64,000 bases of DNA from assembly GCA_040880725.1 (NCBI GenBank), contig JBBDHV010000030.1, positions 26,643 through 90,642 on the forward strand. The letters run 5' to 3'. Source of the stretch: Acidimicrobiia bacterium (GTDB lineage Bacteria; Actinomycetota; Acidimicrobiia; Spongiisociales; ZC4RG35). The translations under genes were made by a program, and so were the position numbers. Shown here piece by piece: positions 1,146 through 56,433 of the stretch (the first letter of the stretch is position 1; every line of letters starts with the position of its first letter). Below the pieces are notes generated by a model. That model saw only the letters and a list, made by a program, of their open reading frames with translations, had not been told where the DNA came from and did no database searches.

Positions 1146-1147
1146 AA

Positions 1148-1524
<377 letters not shown>

Positions 1525-1940: not shown

Positions 1941-1992
1941 CCGAACCGTGGGCTCAGGAGTACCGAAACGGTGGTCTGGAACCCAGGGTTCG
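1941..1992. repeat. Dispersed palindromic repeat, intergenic copy
   Basis: 46/52 identical to 11501-11552; two small hairpins. Confidence 0.85.
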
Positions 1993-2026
1993 CAGTCACC
2001 CCGGGGCGGTTCGTACACTCCGGCGG

Positions 2027-5964: not shown

Positions 5965-6695
5965 GTGCGCTCGAGGTACGGGGGTTGCGTTTCAGCTATC
6001 CCGATGGGACGGAGGTGCTGCGCGGCGTCGACCTGACCGTGGGGGCATCCGAGCGGGTTGCGCTCCTCGGTCCCAACGGTGCGGGCAAGACGACGTTCGT
6101 GCTGCACCTCATCGGGATTCTCAGGGCCGCCGCGGGCACGGTGGCGGTCGACGGGGTGGAACTGACCGATGATTCGGTGCGCGAGCTGCGGGCGCGGGTC
6201 GGTTTCGTGTTCCAGGACCCCGACGACCAGTTGTTCATGCCCACGGTGCGACAGGATGTCGCCTTCGGACCTGCGAACTTCGGGCTCCGGGGGGACGAAC
6301 TCGAGCTGCGGGTGAAGGAAGCACTGACGATGGTGGGGATGAACCACGCCGCATCGAAGGCGCCACATCATCTCTCGGGGGGAGAGCGACGCCGGGTGGC
6401 GATCGCAACGGTGCTGGCCATGCAGCCGTCGATCCTCATCCTCGATGAGCCGTCGACGAATCTCGACCCTGCCGGGCGCAGGGAGCTCGCCGAGATCTTG
6501 TCCGGGCTCGACGTGACGCTCTTGATGGTGACACATGACCTTCCGTACGCCTTCGAGATCTGCGAGCGTTCGGTCGTGATGAGCGAAGGTGCGATCGCCG
6601 TCGACGGTCCCACTGCCGCAGTCCTCTCGGACGCCGAGGCCATGACCCGGCACCGCCTCGAACTCCCCGCCGGTTTCCACCCCCACCACCTCTGA
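5961..6695 (+). CDS. cbiO: Ni/Co ECF transporter ATPase
   Basis: GPNGAGKT, VFQDPDDQLF, HLSGGE, LDEP. Confidence 0.93.
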   Translation: MSALEVRGLRFSYPDGTEVLRGVDLTVGASERVALLGPNGAGKTTFVLHLIGILRAAAGTVAVDGVELTDDSVRELRARVGFVFQDPDDQLFMPTVRQDVAFGPANFGLRGDELELRVKEALTMVGMNHAASKAPHHLSGGERRRVAIATVLAMQPSILILDEPSTNLDPAGRRELAEILSGLDVTLLMVTHDLPYAFEICERSVVMSEGAIAVDGPTAAVLSDAEAMTRHRLELPAGFHPHHL

Positions 6696-6743
6696 CGGCT
6701 TCTTTCAGGGTCAGCGGATAGGCAGGCCGGCTTCGCCGTCGGT

Positions 6744-6791
6744 TTCTTAGCGAACGAGCGCGTCAGAAACAGCGCGTTTCGCGTGGTAGAA
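6744..6791 (+). repeat. 48-nt imperfect palindrome A, copy 1
   Basis: 43/48 identical to reverse complement of 25528-25575. Confidence 0.9.
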
Positions 6792-6797
6792 AAGTCG

Positions 6798-6823
6798 GGA
6801 ACCTGTCGGTGTCGGGAGACGTC
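6798..6823 (+). promoter_or_regulatory. Candidate ECF (SigE/SigH-type) promoter GGAAC-N17-CGTC
   Basis: Motif ends 8 nt before the ATG at 6832 and no RBS is visible. Confidence 0.5.
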
Positions 6824-6831
6824 ACATCGGT

Positions 6832-8175
6832 ATGCGGATATTCGGAATCACGCTCGTACTCGTCGTCTCGGCATGCGGTGGAGGGGAAGTGATCGATTCG
6901 CCGGCCGGTGACTCGGACGCGATCCCCCTCTGTGAGGACGTTTCCACCATCAGCGCGCCGGATGATCGCTACGCCGATCGTCCGGTATACGTGGGAAACG
7001 AGATGCCGATCGACGAGGTCCAGACGTGGGCCGAGACCCAACCGGGATTCGAGACGCTGTGGATCGACCGGGACCACAACGGCTGGATCACGTTGGCCTT
7101 CAGCGAGAACGCCGACCAACGCCAGGCAGATGTCGAGGAGTTGTTCGCCGACGCCGGCGTCGTGGTGGTGCAAGTCGATTGGGCGATGGACGACCTCTCG
7201 GCCCTCCAATCATCCATTCCGGGCCGTTTCGAGCCCGGATTCGTCCAGACGACGGGCATCTCGGTCACACAAGGAGTGGTCACTGTCGGGATCGGACCGT
7301 TCACCGCCGAGCGTATTGCCACCGCCACCGCAGAACTCGCCGGTGAGCCGGTGTGCCTGGAGGGGATCGATCCAGAACTCGTTCCCGAACCCGGTCCGCA
7401 ACCGGAGGCCGGCGACGACTGGCGACTGCTCGCCGACGAGAAGACCGGGCAGGCGTACCGGACGATGATCGCCACCAACCTCGCCGACCTCGAAGAACTC
7501 TGGCGAGAGGCGGGAATCACCTCGCCGCTCCCCGATGTCGACTTAGAGGACGAAATCGTGATCTGGTTCGGCGCGGTCTACGGGTCCAGCTGTCCGAACC
7601 TGCGCATGGACGACGTGGTGATCGAAGACGGGCTCGTGTACCCCGAAATCGTGAATGTGGACGCACCCATGGCCTGTACCGGCGACGCCAATCCGCATGC
7701 CTATGTCGTCGCGGTCGAACGGTCGGCGTTCCCGTCCGAAGGGTTCGTCGTCCGCCTGCAAGCCGAGGAGCCGCCTCCCGGGGTGGTCGACCAGGAGACG
7801 ACAGTGCTGGGCGATGTGACGATTCCCGGGTCCTACGTTGTCGGAATTCGAGAAGAGCTCCCGACCGACCCCGGACTGCCCTCGGTCGAGGACGGCGGGG
7901 TGATCGAGCCCGGGTATCCGTGGATGTATCAGCTCTACGCCCACTGCGGCGTCGAATGGCTCGGAGAGGTCAATGGTGTTCAGTGGCGGGCCGAGCGGGT
8001 GGACGGTTCGATCGACTTCGTTCCCGAGGAGTGGCGAGCCGAGATCGATGGCGAGCAGTACCTCACCGTCGAGATTCTGTTGACCGAAGGTGATCCACCG
8101 GTGCTCGAAGCGACGGCGGCAGGGCACACCGTTCGCTACCTCCCGGCGACCGAAGATCCGCCGGGATGTGACTGA
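6832..8175 (+). CDS. Acidic multidomain lipoprotein of unknown function (central PrcB_C-like domain)
   Basis: Lipobox VSAC; paired Cys; PDVDLEDEIVIWF..GSSCP..ACT.D resembles PrcB C-terminal domain. Confidence 0.75.
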   Translation: MRIFGITLVLVVSACGGGEVIDSPAGDSDAIPLCEDVSTISAPDDRYADRPVYVGNEMPIDEVQTWAETQPGFETLWIDRDHNGWITLAFSENADQRQADVEELFADAGVVVVQVDWAMDDLSALQSSIPGRFEPGFVQTTGISVTQGVVTVGIGPFTAERIATATAELAGEPVCLEGIDPELVPEPGPQPEAGDDWRLLADEKTGQAYRTMIATNLADLEELWREAGITSPLPDVDLEDEIVIWFGAVYGSSCPNLRMDDVVIEDGLVYPEIVNVDAPMACTGDANPHAYVVAVERSAFPSEGFVVRLQAEEPPPGVVDQETTVLGDVTIPGSYVVGIREELPTDPGLPSVEDGGVIEPGYPWMYQLYAHCGVEWLGEVNGVQWRAERVDGSIDFVPEEWRAEIDGEQYLTVEILLTEGDPPVLEATAAGHTVRYLPATEDPPGCD

Positions 8176-8182
8176 CAGGCGC

Positions 8183-8230
8183 TTTTGGTCTGCGTTGCGC
8201 TTCATTGGTGGACCGCTGCCCCGCTAAAAA
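8183..8230 (+). repeat. 48-nt imperfect palindrome B, copy 1
   Basis: 42/48 identical to reverse complement of 25447-25494. Confidence 0.9.
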
Positions 8231-8259
8231 GCGATCTGGGCCATCTACCGTGGCCGGTC

Positions 8260-9681
8260 GTGCGCACATGGGAAACGGTTCAGTTTGCCGTCGTCGCCGT
8301 CGCTGTTCTCCTCCCGGTGGTGCTCGGCTACCGGCTGAAGCGGGGACGGCTGGCGGTCGTGCTTGCCGTGGCGATGGTCGCCCAACTGGTCATCGAGGGA
8401 TATCGCTGGCAGTTGCTGCCGCTCGAGGTCACCACTCTGGGCCTGGCCGTCACCGACGTTCTCCGCGAGGAGCGGCGCGTGCGCGGTGTGCAGCGGTTCC
8501 GACGCGGCGTGCTCGGTCCGGTGGGAGTCCTCGCGCTCGTGGTCCTGCCCATGGCGTTGCCGATACCTGAACTCCCCATCCCGACCGGGCCGTTCCCTGT
8601 CGGGACCCAGACGTTCGTGGTGATCGAAGAAGAACGACTCGAGGAGTACGGACTTCCGGAACAGGCGGAAGGCGAGGATCCGCCGGAACCCAGTGAACCC
8701 CGGCGGTTCGTCGTCCAGGCGTGGTACCCGGCCGCCGATGTGGAAGGGCTCGAACCGCTTCCCTGGAACCCCGACTTCGACGACTTCCGACCTGTTCTCG
8801 CTCGTCGTCTGGCGGTTCCGGGCTTCCTCCTGGGGCACCTCTCCGACCTCTCCTCGTCGAGCTACGACGGTCCCACTGCGGTGTCCGGCCGTCTCCCGGT
8901 GGTGATCTACTCGCACGGCTGGACCGGTTCTCGCACGCTCGCACTCCACCAACTGGAGTCGCTCGCCAGTCGCGGATTCATCGTGCTGGCCGCGGATCAC
9001 AGCTATGGATCGGTCGCATCGGTCTTTCCCAACGGCGAGGTCGTCGAGTACGACCCGCGCGCGCTTCCCGAGGACCTCGAGGCTGACTCCGAGGAATACC
9101 GCGCAGCTGCCGAACAGCTCGTTGAGACTTTCTCCGAAGACCTGATCTCGATCCTCGACGCCCTCGAAGCGGGTGCGAGCGGCCCGCTCTCGCGTCTGCG
9201 GGCCGACCCAGATCTGTCTCGCATCGGGATCTTCGGCCACTCCACAGGGGGCGGTGCCGCCGTCCGAACCTGCATCGAGGACACCCGCTGCGCGGCGGTG
9301 CTGGGCCTCGATGCCTGGGTCAATCCGATTCCCGACCGCGTCGTCGCGGTGGAACTCTCCCAGCCGAGCCTCTTCATGCGCTCGGACGGGTGGCGGGGCA
9401 CGCCGAATGACGGGCGTCTTCGTGGCTTGGCGGAACGCAGCGCGTTCGAGTCCTATTGGATCGGGATCGACGGGGCTGCGCACAACGACTTCTTGCTGAC
9501 TCCGGTCTTCTCGCCGGTCGCCGCCCGGCTGGGATTGAAGGGTCCGATCGACGCCGACCGGGTCATCCCGATCATCGACACGTACCTCACTGCCTTCTTT
9601 CAGCGCCACCTCATGGGAACGGGCGGGTCAGCCCTCGACGAATCGCCCCCCGCCGAGGTATCTCTCGAATTTCTTCCTTGA
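8260..9681 (+). CDS. Membrane-anchored alpha/beta hydrolase (PAF-acetylhydrolase/chlorophyllase-like)
   Basis: N-terminal TM helices with EGYRWQ; PTGPFPVG, YSHG, LASRGF, nucleophile GHSTGG, LDAW, His in GAAHND; start estimated. Confidence 0.88.
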   Translation: MRTWETVQFAVVAVAVLLPVVLGYRLKRGRLAVVLAVAMVAQLVIEGYRWQLLPLEVTTLGLAVTDVLREERRVRGVQRFRRGVLGPVGVLALVVLPMALPIPELPIPTGPFPVGTQTFVVIEEERLEEYGLPEQAEGEDPPEPSEPRRFVVQAWYPAADVEGLEPLPWNPDFDDFRPVLARRLAVPGFLLGHLSDLSSSSYDGPTAVSGRLPVVIYSHGWTGSRTLALHQLESLASRGFIVLAADHSYGSVASVFPNGEVVEYDPRALPEDLEADSEEYRAAAEQLVETFSEDLISILDALEAGASGPLSRLRADPDLSRIGIFGHSTGGGAAVRTCIEDTRCAAVLGLDAWVNPIPDRVVAVELSQPSLFMRSDGWRGTPNDGRLRGLAERSAFESYWIGIDGAAHNDFLLTPVFSPVAARLGLKGPIDADRVIPIIDTYLTAFFQRHLMGTGGSALDESPPAEVSLEFLP

Positions 9682-11471: not shown

Positions 11472-11974
11472 CGTTCGACCTCTTCTGGCAGGTCCGCGTC
11501 CCGAACTGTGGGCTCAGGACCACCGCCACGGTGGTCTGGAACCCTGGGTTCGGGACCACCGCCACGGTGGTCGGGGGCCCACGGTTGGGGGCGGTGGCGG
11601 GTGCGGGAGAGGGCGGCGGTGATTCCGAGAGCGAGGGCGAGAGCCGGGATCAGCCAGAGAGCGGCGGTCTCCACGGTCAATGGGGGGTCGAGGAGTTGGG
11701 CGCCGCTGTACGAGGCGATCAACTCGTCGATGATCTGGTCGTCCGAGAGGCCCTCTGCGATCCTGGCGCGAACCAAGGCCATCATGTCTTCGGCGAGTGG
11801 TGCGGGGGAGTCGACGATCGCTTCGCCCTGGCAGGTCGGGCAGCGGATCAGCGCCCCGATTTCCCGGGCTCGGTCCTCATCCGGGGGGGCGGCCGTGACG
11901 GTGGCCACCACGATGAACGCGGCGAGAGCGATCGTCACCGCCACCCGGAGTCGTCCCAGCACCCCTTCAGGCAT
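11468..11974 (-). CDS. ccmH: CcmH cytochrome c biogenesis protein with repeat-derived C-tail
   Basis: IRCPTCQG..I.DS, G.SDDQI....Y, LW.IP; tail contains PDHRGGGPEP twice. Confidence 0.9.
   Translation of the reverse strand: MPEGVLGRLRVAVTIALAAFIVVATVTAAPPDEDRAREIGALIRCPTCQGEAIVDSPAPLAEDMMALVRARIAEGLSDDQIIDELIASYSGAQLLDPPLTVETAALWLIPALALALGITAALSRTRHRPQPWAPDHRGGGPEPRVPDHRGGGPEPTVRDADLPEEVER
11501..11590. repeat. 36-bp-period palindromic tandem repeat inside ccmH
   Basis: GGACCACCGCCACGGTGGTC occurs twice, 36 bp apart, with related spacers; homologous to 1941-1992. Confidence 0.88.
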
Positions 11975-24654: not shown

Positions 24655-24703
24655 GTGCCCTCGCCGGGTTGCGGAATGATAGGGTGGTGTTTCACGCAGG
24701 AAG

Positions 24704-24723
24704 CACTTTAGCACATTAACACA
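24704..24723. promoter_or_regulatory. Candidate HisR operator CACTTTA-gcacat-TAACACA
   Basis: AT-rich imperfect palindrome between divergent hisR and hisA; resembles the Firmicute HisR consensus YACTTTA-N6-TAAAGYR as I recall it. Confidence 0.65.
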
Positions 24724-24745
24724 GACCCGAGGACGAGAGGTTCGA

Positions 24746-25453
24746 ATGCTCGAAATCATCCCGGCCGTCGACGTTCTCGACGGCGCCGTCGTACGCCTCA
24801 CCCACGGGGACTTCGACGCAGTCACCGTGTACGACGACTCGCCGGTCGGCAGGGCGAAGCGGTGGATGGACGAGGGTGCGTCCCTCGTTCACGTCGTCGA
24901 TCTCGATGGCGCCCGCACCGGAACGCCCGATCGGGGTTTGTGGGACACCCTCGCGTCGGCGGGAGTTGCGTTCCAGGTCGGGGGAGGGATCCGTACCGCG
25001 GAGACCGCACGCTCCGCGCTGGCCGCGGGAGCCGAACGGGTCGTGCTCGGGACTGCCGCCGTCTGGAACCCCGACGTGCTCGGTGCGATCGACCAGGCTG
25101 ATCGCGTCGTCGCCGCGGTTGACGTCCGCGGTGGCCGCGCCACGGGTGCTGGATGGCTCGACGAGGGCCGTGCCGTCGGCGACGTCCTCGACGACCTCGC
25201 CGCCCGCGGGGTGGCAAGGCTCCTCGTCACCGGGATCGGTCGCGACGGCACCATGGAGGGTCCCGAGATGGAGTTGTTGGATGCGGTGCTCGCCGACCAA
25301 CGCTTCGCGATCATCGCCTCCGGCGGGGTCGGCACGCTCGACGACCTCCGGCGCGTCGCCGAGGCCGGCTGTGAAGCCGTGATCGTCGGTCGAGCCCTCT
25401 ACGAGTCCCGCTTCACCCTCCCCCAAGCCCTCGCCGCCATTTCGCGTTTTTAG
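24746..25453 (+). CDS. hisA: ProFAR isomerase HisA
   Basis: IIPAVD..DG..VRL..G, HVVDLDGA, QVGGGIR, T.I.RDG, IASGG. Confidence 0.95.
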   Translation: MLEIIPAVDVLDGAVVRLTHGDFDAVTVYDDSPVGRAKRWMDEGASLVHVVDLDGARTGTPDRGLWDTLASAGVAFQVGGGIRTAETARSALAAGAERVVLGTAAVWNPDVLGAIDQADRVVAAVDVRGGRATGAGWLDEGRAVGDVLDDLAARGVARLLVTGIGRDGTMEGPEMELLDAVLADQRFAIIASGGVGTLDDLRRVAEAGCEAVIVGRALYESRFTLPQALAAISRF

Positions 25454-25575
25454 CGGGGCAGCGGTTCATGGATGAACCGGAACGCAGACCAAAACGGCTT
25501 ACGGGTGTCGGCCGGATTGTTCACGATTTCTATCACGCGAAGCGCGTCGTTTCTGACGCGCTGGTTCGCTAAGAA
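25447..25575 (-). mobile_element. 129-bp 'empty' A-B element (palindrome A 25528-25575, 33-nt spacer, palindrome B 25447-25494), MITE/REPIN-like
   Basis: Both halves match the flanks of gene 6832-8175; outer ends form a 13/17 terminal inverted repeat; mobility is inferred. Confidence 0.65.
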
Positions 25576-54778: not shown

Positions 54779-55864
54779 TCAGGGTCCGGCGCGGACCGGA
54801 CGGCGACGCAGGAACGTGCGTCGTTGCGGCGGCGAGGCAGCGTCGATCTGCCTGCCCTGTTGGTGGATGACCACATGATGGTGATACCAACACACCGTGA
54901 TCAGATTGTCCGGATCATGGGTCCCACCCTCCGAGTAGGGGATGAGATGGTGGGGTTGGAGCCGGGTACGGGAGTTGCAGCCGGCGATGACACAACGATG
55001 TCCGTCCCGTTGCAGCACCAGCCTGCGCACCGTTGAGGGGATCGTCCGGGATGTGGGTGTGGTCGACACTGTCCGGGTGTCATGGTCAAAGAAGATGACC
55101 TGTCCGGTCCCCGAACAGAGGATCTCGGCGAGGGTGTTCGGTCCGATACGCGGTCCGGAGACGACACTGGCTCCCGCCTGACCGTTGGTGACTGATGCGA
55201 GGTTGCCGTCGATGAAGATCTCCGCCGCCAGGTCATGACCGCCGATCTCACCCGACAGCCATTCGGATGCGACCGACACCAACCCGTCGGCCCGGTCCTG
55301 GGAGGTGGTGGTGTCGGGGTTGTCGGGGAGGGTGTCGACCGCGGTCTGGATGGCCTTGTCCACGATCCGTCCGTCCACACCGGAGAGCTGTCCCCACACT
55401 TTCCACGATGACTCGTCCAACGACGGCTGCAGATGCAGGTACCGGTCCGAGAAGCTGTCGGATTCGTCCTGGCTGCTGATCCGCCGATGTTGGGAGACCA
55501 TCTGGCGGACCCCTGCGAGGTCTCGTCCCCAACTGTGCGCAATGGTGTTCTCGTCGGCCCCGGCAGTCCGCAGGCCGGTGACCGCGGCGGCCCGGTCGGT
55601 GGTGATCTGTCCGTCTTCGAGGGCGGTTTCCACATCGGGGTCTTCGGCCCGGGCCAAGGCGACCAGCGTCCTTGCGGTGGAAGTTTCGAGGTCGAAACGG
55701 CCTGCCACCCACTCCACCAGGGTGCGGGCCCCGTCCACAGTGGCGGCCTGGGCGACGTCCAACTCCCGCAGGATCTGCAAGCAGAGGGCATCCAGGCGGG
55801 AGCCTGCTGCGATCAACTCGGCGAAGTCCCGTTCCAGGGCATCGATGGTCCTCGTTTCATCCAT
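54779..55864 (-). CDS. DUF222/HNH endonuclease (13E12-repeat-like family)
   Basis: G.RT..EW, RADGL, RD.HRC..AGC, HH....S.GG.....NL...C.YHH...H. Confidence 0.9.
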   Translation of the reverse strand: MDETRTIDALERDFAELIAAGSRLDALCLQILRELDVAQAATVDGARTLVEWVAGRFDLETSTARTLVALARAEDPDVETALEDGQITTDRAAAVTGLRTAGADENTIAHSWGRDLAGVRQMVSQHRRISSQDESDSFSDRYLHLQPSLDESSWKVWGQLSGVDGRIVDKAIQTAVDTLPDNPDTTTSQDRADGLVSVASEWLSGEIGGHDLAAEIFIDGNLASVTNGQAGASVVSGPRIGPNTLAEILCSGTGQVIFFDHDTRTVSTTPTSRTIPSTVRRLVLQRDGHRCVIAGCNSRTRLQPHHLIPYSEGGTHDPDNLITVCWYHHHVVIHQQGRQIDAASPPQRRTFLRRRPVRAGP

Positions 55865-55870
55865 GCGACC

Positions 55871-55913
55871 AACGTACAGGAGGGGTGTGACAGAAAGTCG
55901 AACGCCTGTTCGA
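55871..55913 (-). promoter_or_regulatory. PafBC-like promoter (TGTCAC-N10-TACGTT) plus perfect LexA box
   Basis: TCGAAC-gcct-GTTCGA at 55898-55913; -10 lies 6 nt before ATG. Confidence 0.8.
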
Positions 55914-55934
55914 TCCATTCGAGAAATTCTCGAT

Positions 55935-56008
55935 TCAGGCTGAACCACTGCCGTACGGGCGGGTGATGACTCGAGCATGTGGCCGTCGGGGTCCTCGAAG
56001 TAGACGCC
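55935..56008 (-). pseudogene. C-terminal remnant of a VOC/glyoxalase gene
   Basis: GVYFEDPDGHMLE, then after a 1-nt shift ITRPYG..*. Confidence 0.65.
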
Positions 56009-56052
56009 GTCGACGGGAGTCGGGCGACGGGGGTCGTCGGTAGTGTCGGCAG

Positions 56053-56433
56053 ATGCCCGAGAACCAAGACGTGCCCGCCTCCGAACTCATCGACCGCTAC
56101 ATCTCCGGGATCGACGACTGGCGGGGCGAGCGGCTCGCCCACATCCGCGACCTCATCCACGAGGCGGACCCGGATGTGGAAGAGACGTTCAAGTGGCGCG
56201 GGAACCCGGTGTGGGAACACGACGGCATCATCTGCGTCGCCGGTGCCTTCAAGTCCAAGGTCAAGATCACCTTCCACAGTGGGGCCTTCATCGAGGACCC
56301 GAAGAGCGTGTTCAACAACGGACTCGACGGAAACAAGTGGCGGGCGATCGACATCACCGAGGACCATGTCCTCGACGAGGCGGCTTTCCAGGGACTGATT
56401 TCCGCGGCGGTCGCTCACAACACGGCGAGGTAG
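56053..56433 (+). CDS. DUF1801 (YdhG-like) protein
   Basis: DWRG..L..IR.LI..ADP...E..KW.G.PVW...G, DP...FN.GLDGN..R.ID. Confidence 0.9.
   Translation: MPENQDVPASELIDRYISGIDDWRGERLAHIRDLIHEADPDVEETFKWRGNPVWEHDGIICVAGAFKSKVKITFHSGAFIEDPKSVFNNGLDGNKWRAIDITEDHVLDEAAFQGLISAAVAHNTAR

Follow-up and report, generated by a model that had tools for sequence, protein, structure and literature searches.

Introduction

Repeats of the repetitive extragenic palindromic (REP) type are among the commonest non-coding features of bacterial genomes. To our knowledge, the RAYT tyrosine transposase is the only enzyme that has so far been tied to REPs, mostly in Proteobacteria. Here, we analyze a stretch of 64,000 nucleotides of DNA from an Acidimicrobiia bacterium, referred to below as the window (G000:C30:26643-90642), in which two 48-nt palindromes, A and B, bracket a gene for a lipoprotein-like protein and recur side by side downstream of hisA. 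Both palindromes belong to families dispersed through the genome, and each family also frames a gene for a predicted nuclease located outside the window.

Systems in which REPs, bacterial interspersed mosaic elements (BIMEs) or REPINs are accompanied by a RAYT (TnpA-REP) gene are called REPtrons (Nunvar 2010, PMC2817692; Bertels & Rainey 2011, PMC3116915; Ton-Hoang 2012, PMC3333891); REPINs are inverted REP doublets (PMC3116915). The CGTC-tagged REPs (Di Nocera 2013, PMC3733652) are a REP-type family that, in the available text of that work, has no known tyrosine transposase partner, and in this respect A and B resemble them. An initial annotation of the window had followed another line and had taken the two A-B arrangements for the loaded and the empty state of a non-autonomous gene-capture or transfer unit.

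Results

Families A and B frame nuclease genes

Iterative nhmmer searches seeded with the window copies retrieved 29 copies of A and 22 hits of B (two of them partial, i.e., ca. 20-22 copies) in the source genome G000, whose assembly comprises 2.48 Mb in 60 contigs and is 86% complete. The family unit is ca. 48-55 bp long and extragenic: on a crude gene map based on GC content at third codon positions (GC3), none of the 51 copies lies inside a chosen coding frame. The consensus head of A, TTCTTAGCG, stands at its start; that of B, at its end, is the reverse complement of TTTTTAGCG, so both heads are of the same kind. The 49 full copies form 17 pairs of neighbours no more than 2.5 kb apart, 16 of them with heads pointing outward and one in tandem. 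All 12 pairs with spacers of at most 100 nt (actual spacers 15-66 nt) are head-out; they are of A/A, A/B or B/B type, six being A-B, and their spacer sequences vary from doublet to doublet. These counts support non-autonomous, mobile-type repeats that obey a strict pairing rule, and to this extent the initial annotation is borne out.

Homologous genes, on contigs C7 and C43, lie within two of the four wide head-out pairs; their ends are 4-48 nt from the framing palindromes, and their products are 59% identical. The C7 protein matches AbiEi_4 (PF13338) with 31.3 bits (cut-off 25) and DUF559 (PF04480) with 35.8 bits (cut-off 20.6); the C43 protein scores 28.6 and 31.5 bits, respectively, and all of these values exceed the curated Pfam cut-offs. 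A search for a nuclease gene flanked by A and B, which had been proposed at the outset, thus yielded two such genes, one framed A/A and the other B/B. The A copies framing the C7 gene are the two best-scoring of all 29 (59.5 and 58.0 bits), despite the model having been seeded with copies from the window.

Genome G000 holds six full-length paralogs of these genes and two truncated ones. All six full-length paralogs are framed by inverted repeats (46-96 nt, 75-89% identical), which have 39-90 further BLAST matches in the genome; the truncated paralogs have neither framing repeats nor dispersed matches. By nhmmer, A has 29 members, B 22 and the family that belongs to the C21 paralog 33. Three paralogs share an overlapping superfamily of 87-117 members, some of which are found in the window (1942-1993 and 11498-11586).

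The same layout was found in related genomes. Nuclease homologs (E <= 1e-10) are present in 25 of the 31 genomes of the same-order set, and a framing inverted repeat of at least 31.6 bits was detected at 26 of 30 same-order loci (24 of 28 without the two G000 loci; one of the 26, L010, comes from an unpublished genome, G021). As a control, only one of 200 random 900-nt intervals of G000 reached 30 bits. The four unframed loci are L008 and L016, which are cut or partial genes, L013 and L020. In the relatives, the framing arms are palindromes of ca. 48 nt that have TTYT...ARAA ends and a core differing by lineage; arms of B type accompany orthologs of the B-type gene, and arms of A type those of the A-type gene. 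In each of three other genomes tested the framing palindrome is dispersed (seven places in G016, 22 matches in G009 and 42 in G030). As can be seen from these loci, one palindrome is located 11-90 nt upstream of each nuclease gene and another copy lies at or over its stop codon.

Seven other genomes of the same genus (G001-G007) were compared with G000. Across the genus, the nuclease genes keep their syntenic positions. In G001 (L026) and G007 (L029), the nuclease gene and both of its palindromes are inverted as one unit between conserved flanks, as expected from recombination between inverted palindromes.

Two homolog loci deserve a separate description. At L022/L104 (G019:C9), the nuclease homolog is framed by short tandem arrays of two ca. 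37-nt units with a AACCCTGGGTT core, in place of single palindromes. At L008 (G007:C19:20808-21714), the A-type homolog matches in two adjacent pieces (query residues 1-235 and 234-302), and this is possibly a frameshifted gene.

In the phylum as a whole, homologs (E <= 1e-15) are present in 58 of 201 genomes, and framing was found at 11 of 30 loci. The framed layout is common in this order and is not universal for the protein family. DUF559 is altogether missing from genome G018 and is represented in G015 by a 132-aa open frame only; no REP-like family was found in samples of 383 kb and 216 kb, respectively, from these two genomes. Repeated segments numbered four in each of them, all tandem, tRNA or coding, versus 35 in G000 and 49 in G030 (400-kb samples).

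The B family co-occurs with the B-type nuclease in the genus

The B-type nuclease locus is filled in G000, G004, G006 and G007; in G001, G002, G003 and G005, only 55-109 nt with head remnants separate the anchors. A 17-mer of the B head (at most one mismatch) occurs 20, 15, 31 and 19 times in G000, G004, G006 and G007, versus 0, 0, 2 and 4 times in G001, G002, G003 and G005, a count that understates diverged relics, because B-like palindromes persist in G005; the reversed control gave 0. At the emptied G005 locus, the surviving palindrome matches that of G004 at 34 of 48 positions, and the flanks match at 43/45 and 49/53; the head of this palindrome has switched to an A-like type.

The idea that the short doublets are worn-down nuclease cassettes was considered and rejected. 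By eye, their spacers are unlike the inner ends of the cassettes, and the emptied B-nuclease loci hold head remnants or a single palindrome and no doublet.

Symmetry and location of the palindromes

The initial annotation had called the elements palindromes. For single copies this is not apparent from folding: the single-strand folding z-score of both copies that bracket the lipoprotein-like gene is -0.54, with 56-57 of 200 shuffled sequences folding equally well, and z-scores of individual copies range from -0.5 to -1.95. The family pattern does support the term, since stem pairs are conserved and change in a compensatory manner. Pair 19-30 of A is GC in 16 copies and CG in 10, pair 17-30 of B is CG in 11 copies and GC in six, and in both cases symmetry is kept by two-sided changes. 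RNAalifold recovered only the outer 5-bp stem of family A, and the inner pairs were counted in columns set by hand.

In at least eight of the 51 copies the neighbouring frame ends at a TAG within the palindrome head, hisA being one of them (window 25451-25453), which suggests insertion at or just inside the 3' ends of genes. A palindromic CGCG adjoins the heads and may belong either to the element or to its target. No conserved GTAG is present in the consensus heads TTCTTAGCG (A) or TTTTTAGCG (B, reverse strand).

Conserved stems with compensatory changes in elements that lie at gene ends could be taken for structured RNA modules, such as terminators, mRNA stabilizers or a small-RNA family, kept by selection for RNA folding. 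We found no Rfam match at A or B, either at the gathering threshold in the whole window or at E <= 1 in positions 6600-8400, and a consensus scan of the latter interval returned no terminator-like sites. The elements, moreover, occur in both orientations and in head-out pairs irrespective of the neighbouring genes, and RNA folding leaves the framing of the nuclease genes unexplained. An RNA module is the least probable of the explanations that we weighed, with only a very slight chance of being correct.

The partner protein and its possible activities

An AlphaFold (AF2) model of the partner protein has a pLDDT of 92.2 and a pTM of 0.83. Its first ca. 200 residues match an AbiEi antitoxin (6y8q, E 2.9e-5), and its last ca. 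100 residues match the catalytic domain of the homing endonuclease I-Bth0305I (3r3p, TM 0.71-0.83) and also Vsr (1cw0, 1vsr) and NGO0050 (3hrl). Rv2827c (1zel) matches the model along 237-254 alignment columns. VSR, DUF559 and DUF2726 have been placed in one PD-(D/E)XK clade that includes a group I intron homing endonuclease (PMC3424549). The partner is thus predicted to join an AbiEi-like winged-helix module for DNA binding to a nuclease of the DUF559/Vsr-like PD-(D/E)XK type. Seven residues (G24, A78, G180, E203, D234, H252 and D261) are the same in all of 45 homologs, and two more, E245 and R264, are conserved to at least 90%.

Proteins of the AbiEi type serve as repressors that bind inverted repeats. 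The palindromes may accordingly be viewed as operators of a regulon, with the AbiEi-like proteins as autoregulating repressors that by chance have many sites and whose nuclease domain serves another purpose. The match of the fold to DNA-binding AbiEi (6y8q) and the palindrome upstream of each nuclease gene agree with such a role, and the symmetric two-sided changes fit the binding site of a dimer as well as they fit a hairpin. Against this role, a copy is also located at or over the stop codon of each nuclease gene, and many copies abut or supply the stops of unrelated genes (the neighbouring frame ends in the TAG of the head in at least eight of 51, see above). The sites also come and go between sister species, families reach sizes of 87-117, several paralogs per genome each have a private family, and the nuclease residues are invariant. 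We consider the operator explanation unlikely.

The lipoprotein-like gene is resident at its locus

The annotated architecture of the window was confirmed when the sequence was re-read. Four 48-nt elements occur in the same order and orientation at both sites, with A/A identity of 43/48, B/B identity of 42/48 and spacers of 1391 nt and 33 nt; B begins 7 nt past the TGA of the open reading frame (ORF) that it follows. The likeness between the window copies is not due to chance, their mutual BLAST E-values being 1e-10 to 1e-11 in a search of all 2.48 Mb of the genome. The 447-aa product has an N-terminus with a lipobox-like ...VVSAC, as befits its designation, and no Pfam match. The neighbours are likewise those named before: a cbiO-like ABC ATPase gene upstream and a hydrolase gene downstream at this site, hisA (frame 24683-25450, matching Pfam His_biosynth) and an acyl-CoA dehydrogenase gene at the other. 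The single promoter that had been placed between A and B was not recovered, since a σ70 consensus scan of positions 6600-8400 returned no sites, which is a weak test for this phylum.

The orthologous locus was compared within the genus. In G002, the lipoprotein gene lies between the same neighbours with palindromes on neither side. In G001, it is flanked by that genome's own palindrome type, the type also present at its nuclease locus L002, and in G004 it lies between two same-direction palindromes. The gene is absent from G005, where the same two palindromes as in G004 are only 45 nt apart, with ca. 20 nt kept after the left element and ca. 8 nt before the right one, in flanking DNA ca. 93% identical to that of G004. 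In G007, an A/A doublet follows cbiO, the first half of the lipoprotein gene is gone, and there is no downstream palindrome. The locus is broken by contig ends in G003 and G006. Since the gene is whole or truncated in five of the six genus genomes with an assembled locus, the G005 state is a deletion, and the ca. 20 nt and ca. 8 nt that were retained show that the gene was not cut out exactly at the ends of the elements. By this comparison of a repeat-free G002 locus with loci that carry other palindrome types and orientations, the lipoprotein gene is ancestral and the palindromes in G000 are species-specific later arrivals, apparently two separate ones in the two intergenic spaces of the gene.

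We also note that two independent deletions of the lipoprotein gene, L035 in G005 (the whole gene between two palindromes) and L034 in G007 (the first half, beside the A/A doublet), start less than ca. 25 nt from a palindrome. These deletions could be nuclease-related, or such positions could be merely the only tolerated end points.

These data bear directly on the gene-capture unit of the initial annotation, in which A and B are the two ends of a cassette, loaded at the lipoprotein locus and empty at the 33-nt doublet. In its topology, with heads outward, it agrees with the nuclease cassettes and the doublets, and G004 and G005 share two palindromes that enclose the gene in one genome and 45 nt in the other. 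A second short gene is also bracketed, a 71-aa ORF with a C-terminal hydrophobic tail between head-out B/B copies with a 296-nt spacer (G000:C60:25459-25848), which is the sole other non-nuclease gene bracketed head-out by A/B copies. The presence of the gene at the same locus without repeats in G002, an arrangement named beforehand as one that would speak against the unit, already largely refutes it. Other palindrome types or orientations, or a one-sided palindrome, are found in G001, G004 and G007, the G005 state is a deletion as described above, and no second copy of the lipoprotein gene was found elsewhere in G000, only the repeats. The supposed empty copy at 25447-25575 is one of the six short A-B doublets mentioned above and is of the usual head-out kind. 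For the case that A and B did not form a unit, abundant copies without ordered pairing had been foreseen; the copies are indeed abundant, but their pairing is ordered.

Outside the nuclease loci, the bracketing is within chance. Of 2191 inter-frame gaps, 37 contain A or B, and four frames have both gaps occupied, versus a mean of 0.58 for random placement (P(>=4) = 0.002). Two of these frames are the cognate nuclease genes; the other two are the lipoprotein gene and the 71-aa ORF, and two bracketed non-nuclease genes are near chance on the crude gene map (P(>=2) = 0.11).

The lipoprotein gene resembles an integron cassette in being a single gene bounded by imperfect palindromic sites. In contrast to integrons, A and B have no attC-type GTTRRRY/RYYYAAC cores, as had been stated, the bracketed gene is resident and repeat-free in a relative, and most sites have no gene between them. 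Also in agreement with the initial annotation, a Pfam scan of 54 window frames revealed neither a transposase nor an integrase, the window being the extent of the IntI search, and RAYT-type Y1 transposase (PF01797) has no matches across the 86%-complete genome G000. Taken together, we consider the capture unit very improbable.

Turnover at the hisA/acyl-CoA dehydrogenase junction

At the junction that holds A and B in G000, other genomes have occupants of their own: G007 has a G007-type A and a B-like unit, G004 and G005 each have an inverted pair of the G004/G005 type, and G003 has one palindrome of the G003 type. No palindrome is present there in G001 and G002. In every case the occupant is similar to the palindromes framing the nuclease gene of its own genome, which indicates that the site may have been used repeatedly or that old copies may have been overwritten. 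Comparison of orthologous loci thus shows gain, loss and type-switching of palindromes between species.

Other features of the window

The coordinates of the features discussed are collected in Table 1. A third, unrelated repeat is present in G000, with a unit that starts with CAGGGTCAGCGGATAGG, usually after CTNA, and contains an internal hairpin (e.g., C20:59-179 and C5:26947-27057). It often lies less than 200 nt from contig ends and is found inside or against A/B heads at C16:18127, C21:60951, C21:116560 and C28:10018; its window copy is fused to A. The window further contains a class A bacterial RNase P RNA (1147-1521, minus strand, 282 bits) and a DUF222 + HNH endonuclease gene (54782-56086, minus strand), a domain pair that we take to be the one of mycobacterial REP13E12 repeat proteins.

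Table 1. Palindromes and genes discussed in the text; positions refer to the window unless a contig is given.
Feature	Position	Strand	Remarks
Palindrome A, copy 1	6744-6791	+	Head TTCTTAGCGAAC at left, facing cbiO stop; nhmmer 54.2 bits
Palindrome B, copy 1	8183-8230	+	Head ...CCCCGCTAAAAA at right, facing downstream hydrolase gene; nhmmer 54.3 bits
Palindrome A, copy 2	25528-25575	-	Left member of short head-out A-B doublet in hisA/acyl-CoA dehydrogenase gap
Palindrome B, copy 2	25447-25494	-	Right member of the same doublet; TAG in head is the hisA frame stop
Lipoprotein-like gene	6832-8175	+	447 aa; resident, bracketed by A and B; outside the repeat system
A-cognate nuclease gene	G000:C7:38326-39234	-	302 aa; between inverted A/A; outside the window
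B-cognate nuclease gene	G000:C43:44672-45640	+	322 aa; between inverted B/B; outside the window
Truncated 5' part of third, unrelated repeat	6704-6747	+	Abuts head of A; full unit ca. 125 nt, ca. 50 copies
Single palindrome of another nuclease-linked family (...ACCCTGGGTTC... type)	1942-1993	.	Cognate to paralogs on C15, C54 and C43
Doublet of the ...ACCCTGGGTTC... palindrome superfamily	11498-11586	.	

Discussion

We observed framing, repeat dispersal, one family per paralog, a fixed gene position and co-occurrence of the B family with the B-type nuclease. The explanation that we consider probable is that A and B are REP-type palindrome families partnered with single-copy, framed nuclease genes, and that the lipoprotein gene is a resident beside which two palindromes were inserted independently.

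A number of points weigh against this explanation. Binding, cutting or movement of the palindromes by the protein is predicted from genome sequences and a model structure. In the clade to which the A- and B-cognate nucleases belong, the place of the Asp that most homologs have in an E-x-D motif is taken by Q, N, H or L, and these nucleases could be nickases or inactive. All copies differ from one another, the best non-self identities being 92-94%, and thus give no sign of very recent movement. No target-site duplication is discernible in the flanks of copies or in filled-versus-empty comparisons, in which divergence of 20-25% between most genus genomes blurs the element edges. The gene map behind the extragenic location and the chance estimate is a crude, GC3-based one that mis-calls at least cbiO and some strands, and the G000 assembly is incomplete and fragmented. 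Counts over the genus and the order exceed the true support, since related genomes are not independent data points; the comparison with fusion-free genomes covers two genomes only, in partial samples; and outside the class framing was found at seven of 25 loci, three of them from unpublished genomes (G048, G202 and G176). Finally, G005, which has no B-type nuclease, keeps B-like palindromes at all four of the G004 B sites examined, two nearly identical to those of G004 and two divergent, with paired stem changes among the differences. It follows that loss of the nuclease does not quickly erase the family, and with all four sites occupied in both genomes the comparison of G004 with G005 yielded no clean empty site.

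The persistence of B-like copies in G005 would also be expected if A and B were ordinary miniature inverted-repeat transposable elements (MITEs) or REPs that are moved by another enzyme or have ceased to be mobile, the nuclease genes being favoured landing sites or selfish inserters between palindromes. We know of no PD-(D/E)XK nuclease that carries out strand transfer on its own, catalysis by the present one is a prediction from sequence and model, and other repeat families exist in the same genome. On the other hand, each nuclease lineage is framed by its own family and not by the most abundant one, the nuclease genes are syntenic and do not roam, and the B motif tracks the B-type nuclease across eight genomes. 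In addition, no Y1 transposase was found in the 86%-complete genome, and beyond the nucleases A and B frame just two small resident genes. Such ordinary elements thus appear to us quite improbable.

The partnership of palindromes with nuclease genes shares much of its genomic organization with REPtrons, as these are described in the available text of the reports cited above. In both, short palindromes lie outside genes, number from tens to hundreds and form an excess of inverted doublets. A dedicated gene is flanked by its own repeats (here, at 6/6 full-length paralogs and 26/30 loci of the order), is single-copy at a fixed locus and is lost in some lineages (here, the B-type locus is filled in four of eight genomes and emptied in four), and several gene-family pairs can coexist in one genome. 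The two systems differ in the enzyme, which here is predicted to combine an AbiEi-like winged helix-turn-helix with a Vsr/DUF559 PD-(D/E)XK domain and is not an HUH Y1 (IS200/IS605-like) transposase, and in the repeats, which have no GTAG tag, are longer (ca. 48 nt) and are bounded by TTYT...ARAA. Unlike those of REPtrons, the A/B doublet spacers are not conserved, and for this reason the A/B doublet does not look like a copied unit. The chemistry must also differ from that of REPtrons, as must the substrate, which here is probably double-stranded DNA. CGTC-tagged REPs differ from A and B in their tag and in that no specific framed gene is reported for them in the available text (PMC3733652).

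Each half of the partner protein has relatives in systems of another kind. With I-Bth0305I, other Vsr-like homing endonucleases and Vsr it shares the C-terminal fold of ca. 100 residues with conserved acidic and His residues; this homing endonuclease group is presumably the one named 'EDxHD'. Unlike I-Bth0305I-type enzymes, the gene is free-standing, outside an intron or intein, it carries a fused AbiEi-type module, and its repeats are dispersed palindromes versus one homing site. With AbiEi antitoxins of type IV toxin-antitoxin systems (6y8q; Rv2827c, 1zel) it shares the N-terminal fold of ca. 200 residues and Pfam AbiEi_4; unlike in AbiE, no AbiEii-type partner ORF was found between the palindromes, the interval to which the search was limited and in which only one sizeable ORF fits.

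The partnership could operate as follows. The winged helix-turn-helix module would recognize its own palindrome, possibly by binding the symmetric site as a dimer, and the nuclease domain would cut there or close by. The family would then spread and be homogenized as breaks are repaired from other copies or released DNA is inserted again, so that orthologous sites would come to carry each species' own variant. The break-repair detail of this scheme is tentative and we hold it to be rather doubtful. Somewhat less doubtful, though still with the odds against it, is a broader proposal, by which genes of the AbiEi-like winged helix-turn-helix plus Vsr type may drive palindromic selfish DNA across actinobacteria as a 'homing REP' without a transposase. 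Families would spread and be homogenized through nuclease-made breaks repaired from other copies, and resident genes would now and then come to lie between head-out pairs, which would favour the deletion or inversion of these genes. Possible cases are the loss of the lipoprotein gene in G005, its truncation in G007, and the inverted nuclease cassettes of G001 and G007.

A literature search that did not extend to subscription journals and supplements found no link of DUF559 or AbiEi-like genes to dispersed repeats, and a REP-like system with a nuclease partner other than RAYT appears to be undescribed in print. What this locus adds is the class Acidimicrobiia, heterotypic A-B doublets, a count of family versus nuclease across a genus and a worked case of a palindrome-bracketed gene that is no cassette. 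In annotation, gene-sized units framed by such palindromes should not be called cassettes before relatives have been checked. The genomic logic of REPtrons, i.e., private repeat families and a single framed, syntenic gene, is found here on a structurally unrelated DNA-binding nuclease, in uncultured Acidimicrobiia and, less clearly, in other parts of the phylum. Should the partnership prove functional, it would represent a second, independent origin of repeat-plus-caretaker systems, and it would provide a role for the large 'DUF559/AbiEi-like' gene family and directly testable pairs of sequence-specific nucleases and their targets.

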